A DNA stretch of 64,000 nucleotides from Escherichia phage FFH2: the sequence record KJ190158. One strand, written 5' to 3'. Numbering within the stretch: position 1 is the first letter of the stretch; the number at the start of each line of letters is the position of its first letter. Positions 9,196-57,675 of this stretch are shown here, piece after piece. The position numbers and the translations under genes were made by a program. Under the pieces are notes generated by a model. It was not told where the DNA came from, did not search any database, and was given only the letters and a program-made list of their open reading frames with translations.

Positions 9196-9202
9196 TTTTA
9201 AA

Positions 9203-9224
9203 GGGGCTTCGGCCCCATTTTAGA
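9203..9224 (+). terminator. terminator-like hairpin between nrdA and nrdB
   Basis: ggggcttcggcccc followed by attttag. Confidence 0.45.
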
Positions 9225-9234
9225 GGTTAGAATA

Positions 9235-10323
9235 ATGGCTGTATTTAATGCTGAGAACACCGCTCATAAAACTGGTGACTATCCGCTGTTTCTAGGACAG
9301 CAAATGGGTATGTACGACTCTATCAACAAAAAATATCCACAACTGTTTGAACTATACAAAAAACAAAAAGAACAAGACTGGGCAGAGGATGAAGTGGATT
9401 TGTCGCAATCTATTTCAGATTTTGTAACATGCTCCAAGTCAACTTATGATGTGATGGTGCAGACCTTGATGTGGCAATGGGAGGCTGATAGCGTTGCGGC
9501 AAGATCGATCATCTGCCTCTTTTCACCATTCATCACTAATAGTGAGCTTTTCACTCTATTGATGAAACAGTCAGAGATTGAAGTTCTTCACGCACTAACT
9601 TACTCAGAGATTGTTAGACAATGCCTCCCCAATGCCCGTGAGATTATAGAAGAGATTCAGGAAAACCAAAACGTTCTGAGCAGATCTGGCGTTATTGTCA
9701 AATACATGCAAGAGCTTGAGGTTATTGGTGCAAAATACCGACTGGATCCTTCTAGTGTTAAAGAAGATATTGTGCGGAAATGCATTCTTAGAGCGCTTTT
9801 TGCACTTTTAGCCCTGGAAAGTATTGAGTTTATTGCAAGTTTTGCATGCACTTTCGCAGTAGCTGAACAGGGTATTTTTGTTCAGGTGGCGCAGCTTGTT
9901 CAAAAAATCATGCTTGACGAAATGCTACACTCGAAAGGTGATTTTGCCATCATTGATATCCTGCTTAATGATCCGGCATGGGAGAAAAGCTTCCTTGAGA
10001 TAAAAGGGGAGTTAAAAGAGATTCTTGATGAAGTACGAACCAAAGAGTACGGTTGGAGTGACTATATTTTCAGCGAAGGAAGAGCGATTATAGGTCTTAA
10101 CTCACCGTTGCTTAAAGAATGGGTTGACTATAACTGCTCACCAATTTATGATTACTATGGCATCGACAAAGACTTTGTGCCGCCAACAAAGGACCCTCTA
10201 CCGTTTATGCAGGTGTGGATGAAACCTTCATTGCAACAGACGGCGAACCAAGAAATGTCGAACACTGACTACCGCGTCAACACAACTGTTAACGACGCTG
10301 AAGAAGAAATTTGGGAGTTTTAA
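9235..10323 (+). CDS. nrdB: class Ia ribonucleotide reductase small subunit
   Basis: Ferritin-like di-iron helices (E..H pairs), C-terminal EEIWEF-type tail; 362 aa next to nrdA. Confidence 0.9.
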   Translation: MAVFNAENTAHKTGDYPLFLGQQMGMYDSINKKYPQLFELYKKQKEQDWAEDEVDLSQSISDFVTCSKSTYDVMVQTLMWQWEADSVAARSIICLFSPFITNSELFTLLMKQSEIEVLHALTYSEIVRQCLPNAREIIEEIQENQNVLSRSGVIVKYMQELEVIGAKYRLDPSSVKEDIVRKCILRALFALLALESIEFIASFACTFAVAEQGIFVQVAQLVQKIMLDEMLHSKGDFAIIDILLNDPAWEKSFLEIKGELKEILDEVRTKEYGWSDYIFSEGRAIIGLNSPLLKEWVDYNCSPIYDYYGIDKDFVPPTKDPLPFMQVWMKPSLQQTANQEMSNTDYRVNTTVNDAEEEIWEF

Positions 10324-46707: not shown

Positions 46708-46769
46708 TTTTCAGATCTCCTTATACAAAAATGCCCCACCCTTTCGGGCAGGGCTATGTTAACTAGATG

Positions 46770-47996
46770 TTAAAACGGTATGTCATCATCAAAGGCGTAC
46801 TGTGCTGGATTCTGATCCATCGGGTCATCTTCCTCATCATTTACAGGAGGAGCGTCTACAGTGTTTTGCTGTGGAGCTGCTTCCTGTTTGGCAGCCTGAG
46901 GTTCTTGATGGTCAGTTGACCCAGCACCGTTCTTGATCCAATCGTACAACGGCTCAGCCAGATTAGTCAAGACATCTTTTGCTTCTGCAGTAATTGCCAC
47001 TGCAAAATCATCAACTTTCGTTTTCTTGTCAATACGGCGACAAGCGTTCAACACCGCATTACCGACACTGGCACCTACTTCATCTTCAGTTCGGTTGGTG
47101 GCTTGAGCATACTCTTTCTTAAGCTCAATGGTGACTACGTGCAGTGTTTTAGCCACTCCCAGTGGGTCGTCTACCTTAAACCCGCGATCCAGGATGATCT
47201 GCAACGCATTGATGCTATGCCCCGTTTCCACACCGATAGGGTCGTAAGAGGATTTACGCTTGCCACCAGATCCTTGAGTGCCGTTCTCTGCCTTAGGGGG
47301 ATAGGCCTTGAAACCACTGATAATGTTTCCGGTGTCTTTGTCAACAATGGCTGCAACACGACCACCTACCACCAGGTCTTTAAGCTGCTCATCAGTTACA
47401 ACCATAGCACCTTCGCCAATCTTGTGGTCATTAACAGTAACCACGTTGCCAACAATCTGAGTCACATCACCATAGATGCGTAAAACGTCCTGATTGGCAT
47501 TCTGCTGAGGTTTCTGCTTCTGGCCTTGTGATTGTGCACCTTGTTGCTGTTTTTGCTGCTGAGTCGCTGCTGGAGCCTCTCCTGCACCCAGCTTAACCAT
47601 CTTAGCCAGTGAGCCCTTGTAATAGGTCTTACCGTTATGCTCGTTTGCCTTCAAAGGGATATTTACGATCCATCCTGGCGTTACGGTTTCCCACTTGTCA
47701 TCAATCTTAACAGAGACAGAGTCTTGATGACCTGGTTTAAGCAGCTTATCACCCATGCTGATCCAGACTTCTTCACCACCTTGAAGCAGGTTATCAGAGG
47801 AATCCAGTTCAGAAATCAGTAAAGAGATGGTGTGGCTGGATTCAATTTTCTTACCTTGCCACACAGTGGTTTTAATACCTGTTGTAGGATCAGCACCTTT
47901 AATAGGCTTGATGCTAACACGTTTAATCATGCCGTGAGCTAGTAAAACAGTTTCACGCGGATTCATTGGGTTAGCGAATTGTTGAATAACGCTCAT
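46770..47996 (-). CDS. ssb: single-stranded DNA-binding protein with host-SSB-like acidic C-terminal tail
   Basis: Gln-rich linker, then C-terminus ...FDDDIPF (identical to the E. coli SSB C-terminal DDDIPF tip). Sits in the replication module. Confidence 0.6.
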   Translation of the reverse strand: MSVIQQFANPMNPRETVLLAHGMIKRVSIKPIKGADPTTGIKTTVWQGKKIESSHTISLLISELDSSDNLLQGGEEVWISMGDKLLKPGHQDSVSVKIDDKWETVTPGWIVNIPLKANEHNGKTYYKGSLAKMVKLGAGEAPAATQQQKQQQGAQSQGQKQKPQQNANQDVLRIYGDVTQIVGNVVTVNDHKIGEGAMVVTDEQLKDLVVGGRVAAIVDKDTGNIISGFKAYPPKAENGTQGSGGKRKSSYDPIGVETGHSINALQIILDRGFKVDDPLGVAKTLHVVTIELKKEYAQATNRTEDEVGASVGNAVLNACRRIDKKTKVDDFAVAITAEAKDVLTNLAEPLYDWIKNGAGSTDHQEPQAAKQEAAPQQNTVDAPPVNDEEDDPMDQNPAQYAFDDDIPF

Positions 47997-48361
47997 TATT
48001 TGTCTCCTTGTTCTTCGTTAGTGCTTGCCGTGTGTGCGAACCCTGCTTGAATTAATTTGTCCTGAACTTGAGCCAACAGGCCCATTGCAAAACTTGTGGT
48101 CCCAGAGAGGGCCATCAGCATATCCCGTTGTTGAGCTACCCAACCTAAGGCATAGTCCAAACGACGATATTTTTCTTCTTCACGCAGAGCCTGAAATAAT
48201 TGTTCAGCCTCCGGTTGTTGTGTGAGCTCCTGAAGTCTTCCCATGAAAGAAGAAAGCACTAGCAAAAGAGACACTTGATCTTTACTTAACCCTAAGAAAA
48301 ATTCTTGAGGTTGTTCTTGCTCGTTCATCGCAACCGACTCTTGATCGTTCATTTGTTCCAT
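47996..48361 (-). CDS. hypothetical protein (121 aa)
   Basis: ORF coupled to ssb. Confidence 0.4.
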   Translation of the reverse strand: MEQMNDQESVAMNEQEQPQEFFLGLSKDQVSLLLVLSSFMGRLQELTQQPEAEQLFQALREEEKYRRLDYALGWVAQQRDMLMALSGTTSFAMGLLAQVQDKLIQAGFAHTASTNEEQGDK

Positions 48362-48444
48362 TATGGAATCTCCGATTTTATTTGAACAACATAGAAGGAG
48401 ACACTATTTTAGCATCCCCTTCTGTAAATTACAATAGGTATTTG

Positions 48445-48690
48445 TTAGCCAATCACTTCGAAAGTTCCCCAATTCCCGTCCAGCAGGCAGGTGATCGGAT
48501 CCCCATCGTCGTCAAAGATTTCAAAGTTTTCAGCATCCAGGATGTGGCCCTCGAACACAATACTTTCGTCGCCACCACCAGAGATAACAGCGTATTCCTT
48601 ACCTTGAGTCAAGTTTTGACACCCTTTGCCACCAAAACCTACTTCAACACAACGTACTTTCTGTCCTGCGCGAGCAACTACTTCAGTCAT
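48445..48690 (-). CDS. hypothetical protein (81 aa)
   Basis: ORF. Confidence 0.4.
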   Translation of the reverse strand: MTEVVARAGQKVRCVEVGFGGKGCQNLTQGKEYAVISGGGDESIVFEGHILDAENFEIFDDDGDPITCLLDGNWGTFEVIG

Positions 48691-48707
48691 CTTAAGGTCT
48701 CCTGATA

Positions 48708-49028
48708 TTAATCGTCAAGTTCAAAATAGATTTTAACAGCTTCATCGAAGATTGGAATCCCGATGTTGTTGATAAGCTGCCAAACTACCATATCTTTACC
48801 TGGATCTGGGAGAATGTCAACCTTTCTCCATGCGCTGTATACCCAGTTCGGACCGCCTTCTGCACTAACTGGCAGATTTTCACCAGCCTCCTGTAGATAC
48901 TTATACAGCAAAAGATATTCTGGATACTCCAGAACACTGTCCTCTGTAGTATATAGCAGTTCACGGTATACTTTTAAGAACCCTGCTGGGGTGATGTTTT
49001 CAGTCTTCATTTGCTGCTTCTCCTGCAT
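48708..49028 (-). CDS. hypothetical protein (106 aa)
   Basis: ORF. Confidence 0.4.
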   Translation of the reverse strand: MQEKQQMKTENITPAGFLKVYRELLYTTEDSVLEYPEYLLLYKYLQEAGENLPVSAEGGPNWVYSAWRKVDILPDPGKDMVVWQLINNIGIPIFDEAVKIYFELDD

Positions 49029-49389
49029 TCATCAGATCTGCCATAGCGTCACCCACGAAGAGAACAACCACATCGTTTACCGCGTCAGCATCATCTTTGT
49101 TGACGTTGCTGAATTTAGGACACACAGCAATAATCATATAGACACCGTTACCCACCTGAACTGTCCGTGTGGTGCACATCATGGCGGTATTTGTGCCTTC
49201 TTTGAAGGCGAAGCCTTGAAGACGCTCCTCTAGAGTGTTACCGGTAGACTTCAGAAGCGCCAGCTCGTCCAAGGCATAGATGATATCTCCGGAAGTTAGT
49301 GTTGCCTTGCCATCAGACACCATAATCACTCCATCAGCACCGTCAAGCTTAGAGGCTTCAAAGATATCAATATCCCAAATATTTTTCAT
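49000..49389 (-). CDS. hypothetical protein (129 aa)
   Basis: ORF. Confidence 0.4.
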   Translation of the reverse strand: MKNIWDIDIFEASKLDGADGVIMVSDGKATLTSGDIIYALDELALLKSTGNTLEERLQGFAFKEGTNTAMMCTTRTVQVGNGVYMIIAVCPKFSNVNKDDADAVNDVVVLFVGDAMADLMNAGEAANED

Positions 49390-49721
49390 TACGCTTCCTC
49401 GTCGTCTAAGTAATCATCAAGAGAGGTGAAGATTTCACCGAAGTATTCTAAGATTTCTAGCTCACGTGTGGTGCAGCAAACATAATCGCCTTGGTCGTCC
49501 TTAATAGTGGCCTCTTTACCCAGAATATCTACTTCAAGTTCATCGTTCAACAGGACGGCCCCTGTGTAAACTTTGTCAGCTGTGCAGTCCCGAAAAGCAG
49601 AGTCCTTCTCCAGATAGTCTGGCTTAACCTTGGCTTTAATTCGTTGGTATTGTTTGGTCATTGTTGTGGTCCCCTTTCGTTTTGATAGGACCATTGTATT
49701 AGGTCCTATCGCTGTTGTCAA
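49389..49721 (-). CDS. hypothetical protein; paralog of 49725-49979
   Basis: Shared KPDYLEKDSAFRDCTADKVYTG / KPECVANDRAFKDCTVGAIYEA block. Confidence 0.45.
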   Translation of the reverse strand: MTTAIGPNTMVLSKRKGTTTMTKQYQRIKAKVKPDYLEKDSAFRDCTADKVYTGAVLLNDELEVDILGKEATIKDDQGDYVCCTTRELEILEYFGEIFTSLDDYLDDEEA

Positions 49722-49724
49722 GTA

Positions 49725-49979
49725 TTAATGTTCAGGTTTTACAAAAACGACTTCATTAACAGTGCACCAGACAGAGTCTCCTTCATCATCTTTAAAGGTA
49801 AGGCACTGTGCTGAGTTTTCCAGCTCATCGATCTCTTCTTGTGATAAAGGGGCCCCTTCTTCCAGAAGGGCTTTTACCAGAGGGTTCTCACAAAACTCTG
49901 CTTCATAAATTGCACCGACTGTGCAATCTTTAAAAGCTCGGTCATTTGCAACGCATTCTGGCTTCAAAGTAATTTTCAT
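49725..49979 (-). CDS. hypothetical protein; paralog of 49389-49721
   Basis: See paralog. Confidence 0.45.
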   Translation of the reverse strand: MKITLKPECVANDRAFKDCTVGAIYEAEFCENPLVKALLEEGAPLSQEEIDELENSAQCLTFKDDEGDSVWCTVNEVVFVKPEH

Positions 49980-50055
49980 CTTGGCAGTCTCCTTAGTTAT
50001 TTAAAAATCACCGATCTGTTTGTGTGAAGCATCTTATATCTAATCTTACTTCTTG

Positions 50056-50454
50056 TCAATGGCTATTTTCAATCAGCCACACAGGGTCGAGGTAAATTTG
50101 TTGGCGTGTTGCCCAATGACAAACTTCATTGTACATCTGAATCTCTTTGTCCGTCAGTTCACGAATAGGCTCATCTATACCCTCATTTTTGTGGTAATCC
50201 CAGTCGGCATCGATTTCCCACAGCCATGACTTGTTGTCACCACGCTTACGCACACAGAAGTCACCGGGACGGCCTGCCAATGCATTTAAGAACTCGTTCT
50301 CCGCTCGCTCTTGGAGAATACTAAGGAGCAAAACGTTAGAACATGACCGTAGAATATGCTTCAGCTCACAATCATCAATCTCAACTTCAATACGTTGTTT
50401 GACTGTGTGGGTACCTTTTACTAACATCCTACCTCCTCTAAACGAACTCTGCAA
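50056..50454 (-). CDS. hypothetical protein (132 aa)
   Basis: ORF. Confidence 0.4.
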   Translation of the reverse strand: MQSSFRGGRMLVKGTHTVKQRIEVEIDDCELKHILRSCSNVLLLSILQERAENEFLNALAGRPGDFCVRKRGDNKSWLWEIDADWDYHKNEGIDEPIRELTDKEIQMYNEVCHWATRQQIYLDPVWLIENSH

Positions 50455-50632
50455 GGGTTGTGTTGTTCACTGCACCGCAGTAAATGGAGTATCCCAGCCC
50501 ATTAGAGTGCAGAAACCACGGCGTTCCGAAATTATCTTTCACGTAGACATCGCCGTTGCTTGTAAAGGGCCAATATTCTTCGCCAAGGGTAAAATACCTA
50601 CTCATACCTTCAGCAAGATACTTTACTTTCAT
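50438..50632 (-). CDS. small protein, KD..G..W(F/Y)L family member 1
   Basis: YVKDNFGTPWFLHSNGLGY. Confidence 0.4.
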   Translation of the reverse strand: MKVKYLAEGMSRYFTLGEEYWPFTSNGDVYVKDNFGTPWFLHSNGLGYSIYCGAVNNTTLAEFV

Positions 50633-50856
50633 AGGTCCTCTTCTACAGCTACAAACTTGGCAAGCAGGGTGGTTCCGTAGATATGATACTCACCGTTTGC
50701 CAGATGGGAGATAAACCAGGCAATCCCTTCCTCGTCTTTAATCATCTTGTTTGCACGATTTTTATCGTAATAAACCTCGTAGGTCTTTCCTTCTTTAAAG
50801 AATGACAGGTCTGTCATCTTTTCTTCTACAAAAGTAGCTTTAACCAAAGTTGTCAT
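50629..50856 (-). CDS. small protein, family member 2
   Basis: MIKDEEGIAWFISHLANGEY. Confidence 0.4.
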   Translation of the reverse strand: MTTLVKATFVEEKMTDLSFFKEGKTYEVYYDKNRANKMIKDEEGIAWFISHLANGEYHIYGTTLLAKFVAVEEDL

Positions 50857-51227
50857 TGATCGGTCTCCTTCTTGTTAAGTCTGAATACTGCAATAATAAC
50901 ATTCCCAAGGTGCAGTGTCAAATCATTTCCAAGATACCACAACATTCCACGGTCATCTTTGATGAAAGGGTAACAATCTGGTGCCTTCCAGACATTGTAC
51001 ACTTTCCCAACCTGAAAGAAATCAGGCCCTGTTGGGATTTTGGTACCAGGCCACACTTGAGATACCTGAACACACTCCACCTGCATAATAACAGGGATAG
51101 TCATAGATGTAAATGTTTTTGTTGGTTCTACTACCATAAAAGTCTCCTCTTTGCTCAACAACACTTCCATGTGTTGATAGTTTACATTAGTGACAATCAC
51201 CCCAATTACGACCACACAAGTATTCAC
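50853..51227 (-). CDS. small protein, family member 3
   Basis: FIKDDRGMLWYLGNDLTLH. Confidence 0.4.
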   Translation of the reverse strand: MNTCVVVIGVIVTNVNYQHMEVLLSKEETFMVVEPTKTFTSMTIPVIMQVECVQVSQVWPGTKIPTGPDFFQVGKVYNVWKAPDCYPFIKDDRGMLWYLGNDLTLHLGNVIIAVFRLNKKETDQ

Positions 51228-51543
51228 CTGTGATCTGGAACGGGACTCCCATCATTTTAGAAGCTTGCCAGAAGCAATGTACCACCATTTCGCCCACAGG
51301 ACTCCAGATAAGTTCAAGCTTTCCGTCATCGTTCAAGATAGGATCGTACACCGTGTTTCCGTCTCTGTCAACCACTTCGTTTCCGTCCTCATCCTTGCGT
51401 GCCTTTTTGTACTTATGACCGTCGAACACATGAAGTTTGGCCTCCTGCTCTGCCTTAAATGCTTCCAGTTCTTCGATTGTGTCGAAGGTGTACACAGTCT
51501 TATACTTCGGTGTGTCAGGGACTTGAAGCTGATATTCATCCAT
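51187..51543 (-). CDS. hypothetical protein (118 aa)
   Basis: ORF. Confidence 0.4.
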   Translation of the reverse strand: MDEYQLQVPDTPKYKTVYTFDTIEELEAFKAEQEAKLHVFDGHKYKKARKDEDGNEVVDRDGNTVYDPILNDDGKLELIWSPVGEMVVHCFWQASKMMGVPFQITGEYLCGRNWGDCH

Positions 51544-51735
51544 CTGTTCAGGTAGGTCGTTAAGCTACCCCGCACCATTACGTGCATAGCCATACAGTTT
51601 CCTGTATGGATCGGACTACCTCACTGCCTTGGTAACAAGGCACCTCCCATTTCGACCGCACTTGCTGGCCTACTCTACTCGCTTCTTCACACCAACCTAT
51701 GTTGGAGCTATGCTTTCGATAGTCTCTGAACGTTA

Positions 51736-52242
51736 CTACCAGGTGTAGTTTTTAGAGATATGTTTCCACTGTCTTCTTTGCTTTATAGCCCTGACGGTCT
51801 CATAAGGATATCCAAGATCCCTAATCTCGCATTGTCGTAGACCACTCTGCAACAGTTCGCAAATCTCTATTACCTCATCTTCTGTCAGCACAGCGTTAGC
51901 ATTATACTCACCAACTGGCCTTACTCTGAGGTCATTATCATAGGCGTGCTTGATATTTCCACCAGGGGTGGTCCATTCTAGGTTCCAGTATGCATTGTTG
52001 TACTTATTCCCATCCTTATGGTTCACCCATGTGAGTCTTTCAGGATCTGGGTTTGATACAAAGCATTCAGCAACCAGGTGGTGGACACCTTTTGTGCACT
52101 GCTTCCCCTCGATTAGCATGGTTACGCAAAGGTAACCTCTACCATTATCAAAACAAAACATTGTTGTATGATCACGTTTCGATAAAGGTATTGTTCCATC
52201 ATCAAACACGGTATACCCGTGATAATCAGCTGTTCTAGCCAT
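51736..52242 (-). CDS. HNH homing endonuclease (free-standing)
   Basis: WVNHKDGNKYNNAYWNLEW HNH motif. Paralogous to the nrdD intron HEG. Lies immediately downstream of the DNA polymerase gene. Confidence 0.65.
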   Translation of the reverse strand: MARTADYHGYTVFDDGTIPLSKRDHTTMFCFDNGRGYLCVTMLIEGKQCTKGVHHLVAECFVSNPDPERLTWVNHKDGNKYNNAYWNLEWTTPGGNIKHAYDNDLRVRPVGEYNANAVLTEDEVIEICELLQSGLRQCEIRDLGYPYETVRAIKQRRQWKHISKNYTW

Positions 52243-52377
52243 TTTAACTACACCCCTTTAGTCTTCGCTGCGGATTAGCATATTGAGCTTTTACCATACT
52301 CAGGTGTAAAAGTCAACTTAGCTTCCCCGTCAATTAAAGAGGTTATTCGACATAGATTACTCTATGAAGCCACAATG

Positions 52378-54807
52378 TTATTTATGGTAATAAATAATAC
52401 GACGAACACCTTCATCGTACCACCCACGCTTCACCATTTGGTGGTGCATGAGTATCCCAACTAAGTCACACAACGATGCACCACCATTTTGTTGGTATGC
52501 ATTAAGTAAAGAGTGTTTAGATCGGGTCCAGATGGCATGACCATCAAAAGAGTAGATAAACTTCTTACCCGTTGCTTCCCAGAATTTCTCCAGATCCTCT
52601 TTACGGCCCTTAAGACCAGGGTTGGCATCCCAAAGCGCATCGATTACCCTTTGTCCCAACTCTGGAGAGATGTCCAGCATATCTGCAACTTTATCTTTTT
52701 GTGCCCCGTACATAACCCCATACGTGATAGGTTTACCGTCGTTACGGGACACCTCTCTGCCTGCTACTTTTGTATATGCCTCAGCATTGTTTTGGTGTGC
52801 GTCTCCGTTACTTACAACATCATAATACAAGCCGTTGTCGAACTCAAAGGCACCCCAAGCCCCGATAAGCTGCTCTAAGTTGGACCCGTCAATACCGATC
52901 TCAAAGTATCCAGGAGGAACACCCCACAGACTACGCATCTCTTTACCCATAACCACTTTAGGAGATGGTTTAGGCATGTTTGCACAAATACTGTGTTTCT
53001 GTCTGGAAGTGTTTGTTAATCCAGAGCTTTTAGCAGGAAGCTTATGGTCAATCTTCAAACGTGGGTGATTAAGAAGACCAGTGTCAACCTTATCCTCCTT
53101 GATTGGATCAAGTACCGATCTGCGGTTTCGCAATGATAACCATAAGACGATATCTTTAGCCATCTCTCCGTTCAATTTTTCAAGATTCGGACACAGGTGT
53201 CCAAACGTATCTTTCAGTTGCGGAGAAGTAATAAGTGCCCTAGCTTTTCTACGTATTTTCCCGAATACTTCCTTTTTAATCCTTTCGGAGTTAGGAAAGC
53301 TTCGGAACTTGTGCACTGTTGTCTGAAACTTAGCATCAGTTTTGTTCCAGAAGTTGATAATTAGGTCACAATACTCTGACTCTAAAAGCTCGTCCATGTA
53401 TGCATATACTCGTGCATCAACATCTGCATCAGGTAGAGCTTTCTTCTTGCTGTCTTTAGTTACATCCTTAGTTCTCCACATTGTCGGAAGCCAACCAGCA
53501 CTGATCAGGTATCGCTTAATGTCGTCCTGATTGCTGATTTTCATAGGTATCTTGCAGTCAGGCATTCGCTTCTGCTGCAGATCGCTTATTGCCTGATCCA
53601 TCAGCTCTTTAGGCAAAGGTTGTGGTGTGGAGGTGCCCTTAATATAGCCTCTCAAGAAATCAGCCATCTTATCGTGGTCTTTGCAGCCCATCTCTTCACA
53701 CCATTTTATCCCCATTTTACTGACATCTCCTGTGGAGGTAAATGCTCGCTTAGGTGGGGCTTTGAACTCTAAAGCGCTCATGTCTACAGGATAGCCAAGC
53801 TTATCTTTTAACCATTTCCAACCATTATTGGAGATTGTCCCATCTTGGTTAAACGGCTTTTCAGGGAACTTGGGCCGCTGAGACATTGACAGCTCTTTTA
53901 AAGGTAGTTGTGGTTCAACACGATCAGCTATTTCTTTCATCCACGCATCGCAACGGTCACGTAAAGCAATAGCCCCGTCTATGTCGAAATACACACCCTG
54001 ACGGGCCTGCAGCTCCATCAGGAAGTGCTGCAGCATGCCTCGACGTAGTGCGTTCTTCCAGGTGATCTTCTTGAACCCTTTCGGCTTCTCTTTGGCTGGA
54101 TCGTACATAAAGTTCTGCATGTCAGATTTGCCGTAGAATACACCTTTTGATTCCGCTACCAGCTCTTTCCAGAGCAGCTCCTGGATGATAACGTCCTCGA
54201 ATACACGATCCACATACTTCCACAACGGAAGATCGCGCCAGTCATCAATTTGAACTTTCTGGTTACCAAGGGCGTAGCCCCATGCCATAAGGCCGTGAGG
54301 ACCAACAGGCTGCATTTTCTTAGTAACCGGGTTGAATACAGAGTCCGGACAACCTTTTGGTAAAGGGCGATCAGGCCACAAGATTCGGCTCATCGCCAAC
54401 GTATCAAACAGGTTAACCTGGTGGTCGTTGATAGTCCCCATACATTTAGGATCACGGAACATATCAAAATGAATACCGGATAATCTCTCCATCAGCATAA
54501 AGTCATAACTGTAGCAGTTATGGCAGTTCAAAGCTGTTGGTGACCAGTCGGAATTGCCTGTAAGCCAACCCTCCAACTCCGAAAAATCTGCTATGCGAAC
54601 TTCAAAATCCTTATAAAGAGTTTTCTTTGCCAGAATAAAGTTCTTAGCCTTCTCTATATCCTCCTCGGAGTAGTGTGTGCGGTCATTTAGAGGAAGGAAC
54701 AGCATAAAACGGTTCTTATTCAGCTCTTTAAACAGGCCGCAATGATAATAAAGATCTGGGTCTTCCAAAAGCCCTGAGGCCTCCAGATCGAAGCACCAAT
54801 TACTCAT
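52378..54807 (-). CDS. family A DNA polymerase, T7 gp5-like
   Basis: Exo I FDLEASGL; HCGLF, AWGYALG, AGWLPT, GIDGSNLEQL...FEFDNG (motif A) and KPITYGVMYGAQ (motif B) parallel T7 gp5 blocks; 809 aa. Confidence 0.85.
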   Translation of the reverse strand: MSNWCFDLEASGLLEDPDLYYHCGLFKELNKNRFMLFLPLNDRTHYSEEDIEKAKNFILAKKTLYKDFEVRIADFSELEGWLTGNSDWSPTALNCHNCYSYDFMLMERLSGIHFDMFRDPKCMGTINDHQVNLFDTLAMSRILWPDRPLPKGCPDSVFNPVTKKMQPVGPHGLMAWGYALGNQKVQIDDWRDLPLWKYVDRVFEDVIIQELLWKELVAESKGVFYGKSDMQNFMYDPAKEKPKGFKKITWKNALRRGMLQHFLMELQARQGVYFDIDGAIALRDRCDAWMKEIADRVEPQLPLKELSMSQRPKFPEKPFNQDGTISNNGWKWLKDKLGYPVDMSALEFKAPPKRAFTSTGDVSKMGIKWCEEMGCKDHDKMADFLRGYIKGTSTPQPLPKELMDQAISDLQQKRMPDCKIPMKISNQDDIKRYLISAGWLPTMWRTKDVTKDSKKKALPDADVDARVYAYMDELLESEYCDLIINFWNKTDAKFQTTVHKFRSFPNSERIKKEVFGKIRRKARALITSPQLKDTFGHLCPNLEKLNGEMAKDIVLWLSLRNRRSVLDPIKEDKVDTGLLNHPRLKIDHKLPAKSSGLTNTSRQKHSICANMPKPSPKVVMGKEMRSLWGVPPGYFEIGIDGSNLEQLIGAWGAFEFDNGLYYDVVSNGDAHQNNAEAYTKVAGREVSRNDGKPITYGVMYGAQKDKVADMLDISPELGQRVIDALWDANPGLKGRKEDLEKFWEATGKKFIYSFDGHAIWTRSKHSLLNAYQQNGGASLCDLVGILMHHQMVKRGWYDEGVRRIIYYHK

Positions 54808-55538
54808 ACTGTCTCCTCCTGTGTCTTCTCAGCATTCTTTCTTGCAGCTATTGCATCGTCCCTGTTCTTGAAATACCCAAGGCATTTCCTTTTACCATCT
54901 ACATGAATTCTGGCTACCCATCTTTCATGGGTTTTATCCCAATTCACCCCTGAGCAACCGCTGGTGTTATTATACTGCACGGCTCTTCCACTCTTGTGCG
55001 AAAAACCATTATCTTCGAAGAACTTTCTTGCCCACTCTGCCTCTTCAAAAGTTCTGTACTGGCCTAGCCAGACCCTTTCACCTACAGAGTCTGTGCCTTG
55101 AGCTACCCATGCCCCTCTTTCTTCAGAATAGTGCACCCCGACCCTGCCAGATTTGTTGTTGCTACGAGGTATCTTGCAACTTTTCTTTTTGTTATCTGTA
55201 GGTTCGAGTAGTTGCAAATTATGAATACTGTTGTCAGCCACACCACCTGTTTCCCTTATCTCCTTGATGTGGTCAACCTCATACCCTTCCGGTACAGGAC
55301 CGTTAAACATTTCCCAGATTATAACGTGGGCACCTTTAGTGCAATGCTTTCCTAGACTAACCACAGGCCTGCCATCAGCATCTTGCCCCTTGTCAGCTCT
55401 GGAGCCTGCTGAAGTTTTAACATATCCTACACCGCTGCCTGCCAGAATGTCTATCTTCCAAAAAAGATTTTGACCGTCATACTCCAATATTTCTGACCAC
55501 AAGTGATTAGCTACACAGTGATCTCTGAACTCGTTCAT
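54804..55538 (-). CDS. HNH homing endonuclease with AP2-like DNA-binding repeats
   Basis: EVDHIKEIRETGG HNH core plus two RVGVHY../GVNWDKTHERWVARIHV AP2-type repeats. Inserted between the polymerase and primase-helicase genes. Confidence 0.65.
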   Translation of the reverse strand: MNEFRDHCVANHLWSEILEYDGQNLFWKIDILAGSGVGYVKTSAGSRADKGQDADGRPVVSLGKHCTKGAHVIIWEMFNGPVPEGYEVDHIKEIRETGGVADNSIHNLQLLEPTDNKKKSCKIPRSNNKSGRVGVHYSEERGAWVAQGTDSVGERVWLGQYRTFEEAEWARKFFEDNGFSHKSGRAVQYNNTSGCSGVNWDKTHERWVARIHVDGKRKCLGYFKNRDDAIAARKNAEKTQEETV

Positions 55539-55596
55539 AAAGTGTTCTCCTTAAAGGGGAGGCGGTTGTACTACCCCTCCCACTCTTTGTTAAACA

Positions 55597-57675
55597 TTAA
55601 AAAGGTGTTTCATCATCCTCAAAACCAGGGACCGGATCAGAGGATGGATCATCGTATTGGAGGTCTTCCTGCGTGTCAATAGGCTTGACAGTGGGTGTTA
55701 CAACCTTATCAGCCACAACCTTGCCCATAGGTGTTTCTACAACTGCATGCTCTTGATCCTCAAACATAGCCTGAGGTCTCCAAACAACCTCCCCACCTTC
55801 TCCGTCTGTAAACATTTGCATTTCTTTGTCCCAGTACCAATTACTGGCATCATGGAACTTACCTGTGTGCGGGTCCATAACTAAAGTGTCAGCAATACCT
55901 AAAGTTTTTGCTGGACGGTTCTTAAGACCTACCAGACGGACACGTCCACGAGAACGATCCACCATTTCTTCGGCCTCGACACCTATGACTACCCAACTCA
56001 ACTGTTCAAGCCCAGCCGATCCTCGCAAATTCTCTTTTCGCACAGGATACCAGAAAGGTAACGGGTTACCATCTTTGTCCTTAGGAGGCACAATCTCTGT
56101 ACGTTTGAGGTGAGCGATCACCAAGATAAACACGTTAAACTGCTTACAAAACGCAGCCAGTTGGGTCATAGCCATGTCCAGTTCTTTTCGCTCATCCTTA
56201 ACATTAAGCCCTGAAATTACCATGGACAGGTGATCCAGCACAATATAACGACAATAGTACAGGCAAACCATTTGCTTAAGCTTGGTAATCAACTCGTCCA
56301 CCGGAATAGACCCGAAATGTTTGAACACTTTGATTTTTCCAGCTTTTGCCCATGATTGGTGAATCTCTGCGTGTTCTTGATCAGTTAAAAACTGGCTAGG
56401 ATCTTCAACAAACTCTTTAACATCAAACCCTAACTGGTTTGCATACAAGGAGTTAATTGCTTCCTCTGGATCCTCCTCAAGATGGATCATGCATAGACGA
56501 TCATCCTCTTCATAGTCATCGGCCTTCGGGCATGTCGGGTCCATTAAGTATCTTGCAATACAGTGTTCCAGTTTTTTAGCCACGGTTGTTTTACCGCCGC
56601 CTGATGGACCTGTAAGCATTACGAGTGTCCCTTTGTGCAAGCCTTTTAGCATTTTTTGCAGTTTTGGGAACTCTGCACTGATATCTACCCCGTTGGAAGT
56701 CTTTTTCCGCAAAGACTCGATAGAGAAGTCTTCTAAATCCGACACAGCATCAGGCACATATTTAACAGGGTGCCGGAACATGTTGACAATATCTTCCAGC
56801 TTTTTAGCCTTCAGCATGTCTCGGATATCTTTTACACCGTCAGGGTCATTTACTTCACCAGGGTATTCTACGTGGTAAACGTTATCAGCCATCAAAAATG
56901 CTGCGATATTGTGCGTGGCCTCAACACCTTTAATGACGTGTTTTTGCTTCTCTACCTCGTTAGCTGCATCGTTATCCATTGCCAGCACAACTGTTCCATA
57001 GCTACGGATAAACTTCTCATTGTTTGCAAAAGTATCTACTGCGTTTGCACATCCACAGTTAATTCCAACAAAAGGCAGGCAGGGTTTTCCTGCCAGATCA
57101 CCACCGTTGATAACTGCGTCGATCCCGTCCTGGACCTCTTTAGCCCACTGCTTCACCTTTGCCGGGGCTTTAGCGTTGGTGAGAATCCCTTTTACTTGTA
57201 TCTGATATGCAGCCTGCCATGCTGCAATAACATCACCTTCTCCCTCACAAACGTTAATCTGCTTACGGTTGTTGGAAGATGCACACAGCTTTTGACCAAA
57301 CATCTGGGAGTTGGCCTTTACGATGCCAACAACGGAGAAATGGCCCCTTTGCTCTTTAGGAATAGTCCAGTCACGCTTTTTGAAACCAGACAGATTTCCG
57401 TAGCGGTCGTAATATGGGAAATATGTTGCAGTGACTGTCACACCGTCTTCTTGGGACAATGCTGATCGCACACCAAAATATTGTGCAGCCATCAGACCGA
57501 TATTTTGTTGTGGGACAGGGACAATTTTAGTATTTTCTAAAACAGTCTCTACAGTTTCAACTTCTTTTTCATCACGATAGTCTCGTTTCACACTTCCCCC
57601 ACTTTTATACTTAGTTGCTTTCGGGTTTGGCTCACCGAAACGGTTGTATGCAGATGCCATAAATTTACTTCCCAT
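55597..57675 (-). CDS. primase-helicase (T7 gp4-like: TOPRIM primase + DnaB-family helicase)
   Basis: TOPRIM NVCEGEGDVIAA / AMDNDAAN; Walker A LTGPSGGGKTT; acidic C-terminus ending ...EDDETPF. Confidence 0.8.
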   Translation of the reverse strand: MGSKFMASAYNRFGEPNPKATKYKSGGSVKRDYRDEKEVETVETVLENTKIVPVPQQNIGLMAAQYFGVRSALSQEDGVTVTATYFPYYDRYGNLSGFKKRDWTIPKEQRGHFSVVGIVKANSQMFGQKLCASSNNRKQINVCEGEGDVIAAWQAAYQIQVKGILTNAKAPAKVKQWAKEVQDGIDAVINGGDLAGKPCLPFVGINCGCANAVDTFANNEKFIRSYGTVVLAMDNDAANEVEKQKHVIKGVEATHNIAAFLMADNVYHVEYPGEVNDPDGVKDIRDMLKAKKLEDIVNMFRHPVKYVPDAVSDLEDFSIESLRKKTSNGVDISAEFPKLQKMLKGLHKGTLVMLTGPSGGGKTTVAKKLEHCIARYLMDPTCPKADDYEEDDRLCMIHLEEDPEEAINSLYANQLGFDVKEFVEDPSQFLTDQEHAEIHQSWAKAGKIKVFKHFGSIPVDELITKLKQMVCLYYCRYIVLDHLSMVISGLNVKDERKELDMAMTQLAAFCKQFNVFILVIAHLKRTEIVPPKDKDGNPLPFWYPVRKENLRGSAGLEQLSWVVIGVEAEEMVDRSRGRVRLVGLKNRPAKTLGIADTLVMDPHTGKFHDASNWYWDKEMQMFTDGEGGEVVWRPQAMFEDQEHAVVETPMGKVVADKVVTPTVKPIDTQEDLQYDDPSSDPVPGFEDDETPF

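Follow-up and report, generated by a model that had tools for sequence, protein, structure and literature searches.

Two replication proteins of Escherichia phage FFH2 (sequence record KJ190158) end in short acidic tips closed by Pro-Phe, and the question that this locus raises is what these tips bind. Both proteins are encoded between positions 46,770 and 57,675 of the 64,000-nucleotide stretch of DNA that was analysed, hereafter the window. [quoted passage not shown] According to the reading that we favour, with moderate confidence, the 408-residue protein is a non-canonical phage SSB and both tails are tethered docking peptides, which would act on the phage polymerase in the manner of T7, the SSB-like tip probably acting on host partners as well. 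This would link the rV5-like phages, which are common on E. coli and known from phage therapy and the BASEL collection, both to the interaction hub formed by the C-terminal tip of bacterial SSB (SSB-Ct) and to the tail-mediated coupling of the T7 replisome.

Two terminal Pro-Phe tips and their conservation

The open reading frame (ORF) of the SSB-like protein ends in ...NPAQYAFDDDIPF (...AQYAFDDDIPF). Its stop codon, TAA at 46770-46772, directly follows the Phe codon, and a terminator-like hairpin lies 16 nt further on, so that the protein naturally ends with the FDDDIPF tip. A preliminary description of this DNA had given the ending as AFDDDIPF and its last six residues as identical to the E. 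coli SSB tip. Both statements were confirmed, and by comparison with the C-terminus of E. coli SSB, NEPPMDFDDDIPF (PDB 1eqq_A, residues 166-178), the identity in fact spans the last seven residues. The ending FEDDETPF, which the same description had assigned to the gp4-like primase-helicase, was found as well, in the form ...PVPGFEDDETPF (...PGFEDDETPF).

A search of 5.8 billion proteins yielded 55 full-length homologues of the SSB-like protein, every one of which, down to 29% identity, has the tip [FW]D[DE][DSE][IVL]PF. It is terminal in 44 homologues ([DE]-rich [IVL]PF) and followed by an extension in the other 11; tips of this second type are called capped below. Several homologues end in PPMDFDDDIPF, matching E. 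coli SSB over its last 11 residues. When 1.84 billion cluster representatives were searched with a profile, 246 family members were obtained; among the best 147 of these (representatives of 50%-identity clusters) an acidic [ILV]PF ending was observed in 109, and most of the rest were close variants, with PF plus one residue, PW, or DF. When 60 sequences of 19-39% identity were aligned, the only invariant columns were G312, P407, and F408. The terminal Pro-Phe is the most conserved feature of the large unannotated family to which the protein belongs, PHROG 4477, and this supports annotating the family.

For the primase-helicase, an acidic xPF ending was found in 112 of 120 homologues, including Vibrio-phage enzymes at 42-46% identity. 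In the alignment, W613 is the last invariant residue of the globular part; about 80 variable residues follow, and beyond W613 only P691 and F692 are invariant.

It could be supposed, the tails being short motifs, that two PF endings in one phage are a coincidence of chance or composition. Their conservation refutes this, and we regard it as practically negligible. In the 137-kb genome of the relative Bas52 (MZ501102), about 0.6 PF endings of any kind would be expected among the 340 ORFs of at least 60 aa; two were found, which belong to the SSB-like protein and the primase-helicase, both with acidic tails. Moreover, the tip is kept across hundreds of homologues, to about 20% identity. The tips are real, terminal, and conserved far beyond chance.

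The SSB-like protein and its predicted architecture

The name SSB, under which the 408-residue protein was first described, stands in part: the protein is SSB-like by its predicted OB folds, its architecture, its position, and the lack of any other SSB, but it is not recognisable as an SSB by sequence. No Pfam match was obtained at E ≤ 0.01, nor any match to PF00436, and searches of the PDB with phmmer and with a family profile gave no match to the core, the sole match to E. coli SSB being the tail itself. Over its full length (residues 1-408, E 2.8e-173) the protein matched PHROG 4477, a family listed as "unknown function", as did all 60 diverse relatives tested. Nearly all GenBank records label it "hypothetical", a putative SSB being named in OK272482, and an SSB-like label was also assigned by Phold. 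No other SSB is annotated in the Bas52 genome, and a local hidden Markov model built from canonical phage SSB cores had no match within the window.

In the AlphaFold2 model (mean pLDDT 75) the protein would begin with an OB fold, from which a Gln-rich linker leads to a small barrel; a four-helix bundle that probably serves oligomerisation would come next, and then a disordered acidic linker of about 45 residues leading to FDDDIPF-COOH (Table 1). Residues 363-408, which form this tail and end in the tip, have pLDDT values below 50. It was noted in the alignment that family members of about 275-305 aa are devoid of the second barrel, so the conserved core consists of OB fold, helical bundle, and tail. 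The gene sits in the replication module, on the same strand as the polymerase and primase-helicase genes and downstream of them. Taking into account the predicted OB folds, the architecture, this position, and the lack of another SSB, the protein is very probably the phage's own SSB, of a non-canonical type, and we infer that it binds single-stranded DNA (ssDNA).

By comparison with E. coli SSB, the last seven residues and the arrangement of an acidic tip behind a disordered linker are common to both proteins, whereas the cores differ and have no sequence relation: one tetramerising OB domain in E. coli SSB, two barrels and a helical bundle in the phage protein. Foldseek gave weak matches to a DUF2815 (gp2.5-type) phage protein in BFVD (E 0.015) and to 4klk in the PDB (E 0.09); in BFVD the matches were mostly uncharacterised relatives, with the SSB of lactococcal phage p2 appearing, like DUF2815, as a weak match. 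The 408-residue protein has in common with T7 gp2.5 an acidic tail with terminal Phe, but it is not detectably gp2.5-like, considering the lack of a Pfam match and the E values (0.015-0.09) of the DUF2815 fold matches.

The lack of sequence homology to known SSBs, the presence of RecO, PriB, and RuvA among the OB-fold matches, and an architecture that is odd for an SSB are all consistent with a different assignment. The protein could be another OB-fold factor of DNA metabolism, such as a recombination mediator or an annealing helper, that joins SSB networks while host SSB coats the phage ssDNA. We consider this assignment improbable: the protein is the only SSB-like candidate in a lytic phage of 137 kb that encodes a polymerase, a primase-helicase, a ligase, and nucleases of its own, its disordered linker and tip have the architecture of an SSB tail, and both Phold and a few records label it accordingly.

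Another possibility is that the tails act mainly within their own proteins as ssDNA mimics, folding back to tune affinity or cooperativity, with no specific partner. Fold-back of a tail as an ssDNA mimic is known for T4 gp32. The same behaviour has been described for E. coli SSB and T7 gp2.5 (PMC5928155; PMC12339929), and the acidic composition and the disordered tether would fit it. However, charge alone leaves unexplained that Pro-Phe is invariant while the acidic residues vary, the occurrence of the same tip on the helicase is not accounted for either, and the AlphaFold models show no docking of the tail on the core. A purely intramolecular role is, in our judgement, very improbable.

Candidate receptors in the phage and in the host

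The primase-helicase is of the T7 gp4 type: it matched DnaB_C (4.5e-13) and AAA_25 (3.6e-15) in Pfam and PHROG 239, "DNA primase/helicase" (E 2.4e-159, residues 18-677), and its best PDB matches were T7 gp4 chains (E 5.5e-16). As to a possible TOPRIM primase domain, the motifs EGEGD and DNDAA are visible in the sequence; the Pfam Toprim match was weak (E 0.0065) and was obtained with a homologue. The first 130 residues contain no cysteine, so the enzyme does not have the N-terminal Cys4 zinc ribbon that T7 gp4A has.

Many relatives of the primase-helicase are longer, about 975-1015 aa, and contain in the helicase domain an insertion of about 320 aa without Pfam class (homologues P0062 and P0105), which may be an intein.

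The closest solved relative of the phage polymerase is T7 gp5 (E 6e-15). The acidic tails of T7 gp2.5 and gp4, both ending in Phe, dock on the basic patch or patches of the polymerase (PMC12339929). For gp2.5, the docking site is the front basic patch of gp5, formed by K587, K589, R590, and R591, and the site used to place this tail is that of the DTDF peptide in PDB 6P7E, which mimics the gp4 tail (PMC12339929). The T7 precedent put forward in the preliminary description is therefore documented, and the replisome found here is of the same type: in both phages the polymerase and the primase-helicase are T7-type, and the SSB and the helicase have acidic Phe-ended tails. In a phmmer alignment, K748 and K749 of the phage polymerase are aligned with R590 and R591 of the front patch. 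The T7 tails end in DF, whereas the tips described here end in [I/T]PF, nearer to bacterial SSB-Ct. The tail of the primase-helicase is new for this lineage and follows the precedent of T7 gp4.

A phage SSB tip ended by PF that recruits a phage-encoded partner has been described in HK620, where the last six residues of the SSB, NDYPPF, are needed to recruit the cognate annealase Sak4 onto SSB-coated ssDNA (PMC5928155). Unlike the 408-residue protein, that SSB is a distant homologue of bacterial SSB and belongs to a temperate phage, and its partner is a recombinase, not a component of the replisome.

By homology to T7, we infer that both tails are short linear docking peptides on flexible tethers, the tether of the primase-helicase being the variable linker of about 80 residues that leads to the terminal EDDETPF-COOH. 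Both would dock on a basic, hydrophobic site of the T7-type phage polymerase, and possibly on other phage DNA enzymes; docking on the polymerase would couple unwinding, ssDNA coating, and synthesis. As the SSB-like protein has the same tip as host SSB, it is probable that this tip can also bind host SSB-interacting proteins, for example, exonuclease I (ExoI/SbcB), and in this way perturb or exploit the ssDNA metabolism of the host.

The orthologue of the SSB-like protein in phage RudolfGeigy, Bas52_0087 (QXV84166.1), is the subject of a recent preprint (bioRxiv 10.64898/2026.04.29.721553, 30 April 2026). It is identical to the window protein at 405 of 408 residues (97.5% for the gene DNA), with the same numbering, and D252 and Y351 are present in both. 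The preprint presents Bas52_0087 as an SSB-like protein that has a pair of OB folds and a C-terminus without order, and whose FDDDIPF tip is similar to E. coli SSB-Ct; triggering of the reverse-transcriptase defence DRT10 (UG17) depends on the protein, and it is proposed, on genetic links, to interface with host factors including SbcB, whose overexpression weakens the DRT10 defence (bioRxiv 10.64898/2026.04.29.721553). The DRT10 escape mutants were missense only (D252V and Y351C) and were placed at a putative oligomerisation interface (bioRxiv 10.64898/2026.04.29.721553); the absence of other types of escape mutant fits an essential gene. The tail of the primase-helicase is not mentioned in the preprint, nor are the conservation of the tip throughout the family, the setting in a replisome of T7 type, and capped tips.

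The SSB-like tip was, accordingly, already known, and most of the host-partner idea is in the literature: the SSB half, the host interactome included, has been published as a hypothesis with indirect genetic support. What is new here is the equivalent tip on the primase-helicase, the family-wide conservation of the tips, and the interchangeable appearance of the tips of the replisome. Host hijacking by the SSB-like tip is plausible. Should the tips indeed bind to partners in the host, there would be an explanation for the perturbation of host ssDNA metabolism by a phage SSB-like protein and for its being sensed by defences of the DRT10 type.

Identity to the host tip over seven residues, and over up to 11 in relatives, could also be taken to mean that the SSB-like tip is directed at the host only. 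It would then be a decoy that titrates ExoI, RecQ, or RecJ, or a hijacker that recruits PriA or Pol III chi, with no role at the polymerase, the helicase tail being an independent T7-like feature. The ending of the T7 tails in DF (DTDF for gp4) and not in IPF agrees with this proposal, and so do the ties of the orthologue to SbcB and DRT10 reported in the preprint. Nevertheless, the helicase of the same phage ends in an xPF tip much like it and, in relatives, shares the extension as well, which argues for a shared receptor, and capped variants are common, yet they would lose the binding to host partners. An exclusively host-directed role seems to us rather unlikely.

Docking of both tails on the phage polymerase, with additional host binding by the SSB-like tip, is the reading that we retain, and several observations weigh against it. 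The T7 basic patch is half conserved, the segment of K587 and K589 being absent from the phage polymerase. The 408-residue protein has no sequence-level link to any known SSB family in the Pfam and PDB sequence searches, and Foldseek against the PDB gave no significant match, the best (E 0.02) being to generic OB/S1/SH3-like barrels. Finally, capped, non-terminal tips occur in viable phages, which is hard to reconcile with the carboxylate-dependent recognition of E. coli SSB-Ct.

Capped tips and the genes around them

The capped tips are the most novel lead of this analysis. The 11 capped SSB-like homologues and two of the 120 primase-helicases carry after PF a conserved extension, [AS]P[VI]GLQY[GA]xxx[IV][YH]x[LI]; one form of the cap peptide appended to the tips is APVGLQYGKSRIHAL. 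In Bas50 (DrSchubert) the SSB-like protein is capped by an extension of 15 aa and the helicase tip is free, the SSB-like protein of Klebsiella phage BIS47 is capped too, and a capped primase-helicase was found in an IMG/VR contig of 147,443 bp; in the phage of the window both tips are uncapped. Since the same 15-aa extension is borne by either protein in different lineages, the two tips look like equivalent, interchangeable modules, and this suggests a shared receptor. The codons of the extension differ synonymously between lineages, which points to selection on the peptide.

Scans of IMG/VR with DNA patterns showed similar extensions on canonical SSBs (PF00436) and on other SSB-like families. 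Among the IMG/VR matches listed, the commonest forms were APVTLPFPRHAIHAI and APLHHLAGA, and another form, APIGLQYPALLNCM, was seen among the loci encoding MDFDDDIPF. For these loci, about 47 of the 120 matches listed (39%) are extended by 9-15 aa and 73 are free. Genome matches of extended tips lie in gammaproteobacterial prophages or plasmids; one extended allele, annotated as ssb, is present at ≥90% identity in about 264 records of 5,426 complete E. coli genomes. String searches of the literature for APIGLQY, DDIPFAP, IGLQY, RHAIHA, and LHHLAG returned nothing relevant.

Host partners of SSB (ExoI, chi, RecQ, and PriA) recognise the side chain of the terminal Phe together with its free alpha-carboxylate, and caps should therefore block recognition of the E. 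coli type. The existence of viable capped relatives implies that a free carboxylate on the terminal Phe is not universally required in the SSB-like family, and the natural capped alleles are ready-made controls for this requirement. A role of the cap in cloaking, as a second docking motif, or as a degron is possible. More tentatively, xPF tips may serve as portable modules for docking, carried by varied replisome proteins (SSBs of several unrelated folds and primase-helicases), with an availability that the cap may control. Free and capped tips would then be allelic states of a switch between plugging into the host SSB interactome and hiding from it and from the defences that sense SSB. The phage of the window, with free tips, and Bas50 and BIS47, with a capped SSB-like protein, might represent these two states, a proposal that we make with the same reserve.

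Docking of the 15-aa extension on the core of its own protein found no support: in the AlphaFold2 model of the extension-bearing homologue P0006 the extension is disordered (pLDDT about 31-36) and undocked.

The genes downstream of extended tips encode an MT-A70 methylase, RdgC-FtsK-gamma, unknown proteins, or homing endonucleases, or there is none. One Zn-finger/HNH endonuclease family is found repeatedly right after the genes with extended tips. Some rV5-like phages have, inserted exactly between the last Phe codon of the SSB-like gene and its original stop and terminator, a gene for a homing endonuclease that bears a CxxC...CxxC zinc finger at its N-terminus; the corresponding empty site in the window is given in Table 1. 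Related Zn-finger/HNH genes follow SSB genes in the unrelated IMG/VR contigs L038, L047, and L050, and the conserved DNA that codes for the tip may thus be a homing target. The extension as a by-product of homing endonucleases was rejected as a general explanation, on account of the synonymous codon differences and of the varied or absent downstream genes.

The region of the window is 95-99% identical in DNA to rV5-like Escherichia phages of the genus Vequintavirus (WalterGehring, rV5, and O157 typing phage 14), and the 408-residue protein is 100% identical to its counterpart in O157 typing phage 14. The minus strand carries every gene of 46-64 kb. From upstream to downstream, the replication module consists of rIIB and a Dda-like helicase, methyltransferases, the primase-helicase, an HNH-AP2 endonuclease, the DNA polymerase in two pieces, small ORFs of unknown function, and the 408-residue protein (Table 1). 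Between the pieces of the polymerase (809 and 118 aa; 51187-54807) lie about 830 nt with an HNH endonuclease gene, and the polymerase is annotated as a joined CDS in GenBank relatives (MZ501111). No group I intron was detected with Rfam in the split polymerase or anywhere in the window.

Table 1. Positions of the features discussed, in the window unless a locus number (L) of a relative is given.
Feature	Position	Strand	Remark
Gene of the 408-aa SSB-like protein (PHROG 4477)	46770-47996	-	Orthologue of Bas52_0087
Residues 1-138, N-terminal beta-barrel, predicted OB fold	47583-47996	-	AlphaFold2 model
Residues 139-170, Gln-rich disordered linker	47487-47582	-	pLDDT <50; length variable in alignment
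Residues 171-232, second small beta-barrel	47301-47486	-	AlphaFold2 model and alignment
Residues 253-355, four-helix bundle	46932-47240	-	D252 and Y351 (DRT10 escape sites in Bas52_0087) assigned here
Residues 363-401, disordered acidic Pro/Gln-rich linker	46794-46910	-	pLDDT <50; sequence variable in alignments
Codons of the C-terminal tip FDDDIPF	46773-46793	-	P407, F408 invariant
Terminator-like hairpin, GC-rich with T-run	46733-46754	-	16 nt after stop
Zn-finger homing-endonuclease insertions	L002:4244-4867; L001:7386-7964; L054:2744-3367		Empty site in window 46708-46769
Tip extensions in relatives	L002:4219-4272; L003:4517-4564; L004:3671-3718; L054:2725-2772 (Bas50); L073 (BIS47_17); IMG/VR loci from L006 on		
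Gene of the T7-gp4-type primase-helicase, 692 aa	55597-57675	-	Pfam DnaB_C and AAA_25; PHROG 239
Residues 614-685, variable linker	55621-55836	-	Beyond the part aligned with T7 gp4
Codons of the C-terminal tip EDDETPF	55600-55620	-	P691, F692 invariant
T7-type family A DNA polymerase, N-terminal 809 aa	52378-54807	-	Candidate receptor for both tails
Same polymerase, C-terminal 118-aa piece	51187-51543	-	PHROG 8888 positions 185-295
HNH endonuclease gene splitting the polymerase	51736-52242	-	
Free-standing HNH-AP2 homing endonuclease (HNH_3 and AP2 domains)	54804-55538	-	Between primase-helicase and polymerase
121-aa acidic protein, PHROG 7310	47996-48361	-	Its end coincides with the start of the SSB-like gene
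Class I ribonucleotide reductase small subunit	9202-10323	+	Acidic Phe-ended tail EEEIWEF

The gene of the PHROG 7310 protein and that of the SSB-like protein overlap by one base, which suggests translational coupling. The pair is retained in distant relatives (L002 and L004), which makes the small protein a possible partner of the SSB-like one. At the other end of the module, the stop codon of the HNH-AP2 gene overlaps the start of the polymerase by 4 nt; Bas52 is devoid of this gene.

The small subunit of ribonucleotide reductase has the only other acidic Phe-ended tail within the window. It was considered as a third replisome tip and rejected, the tail being expected to bind the large subunit of the reductase; EEEIWEF is presumably the usual large-subunit-binding peptide, unrelated to the replisome tips.

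It was also observed that 16-17 records (MG0656xx) titled "Campylobacter phage", with C. jejuni as host, are 97-98% identical to rV5-like phages of E. coli across the whole region. Probably their host labels are wrong or the isolates are contaminants.

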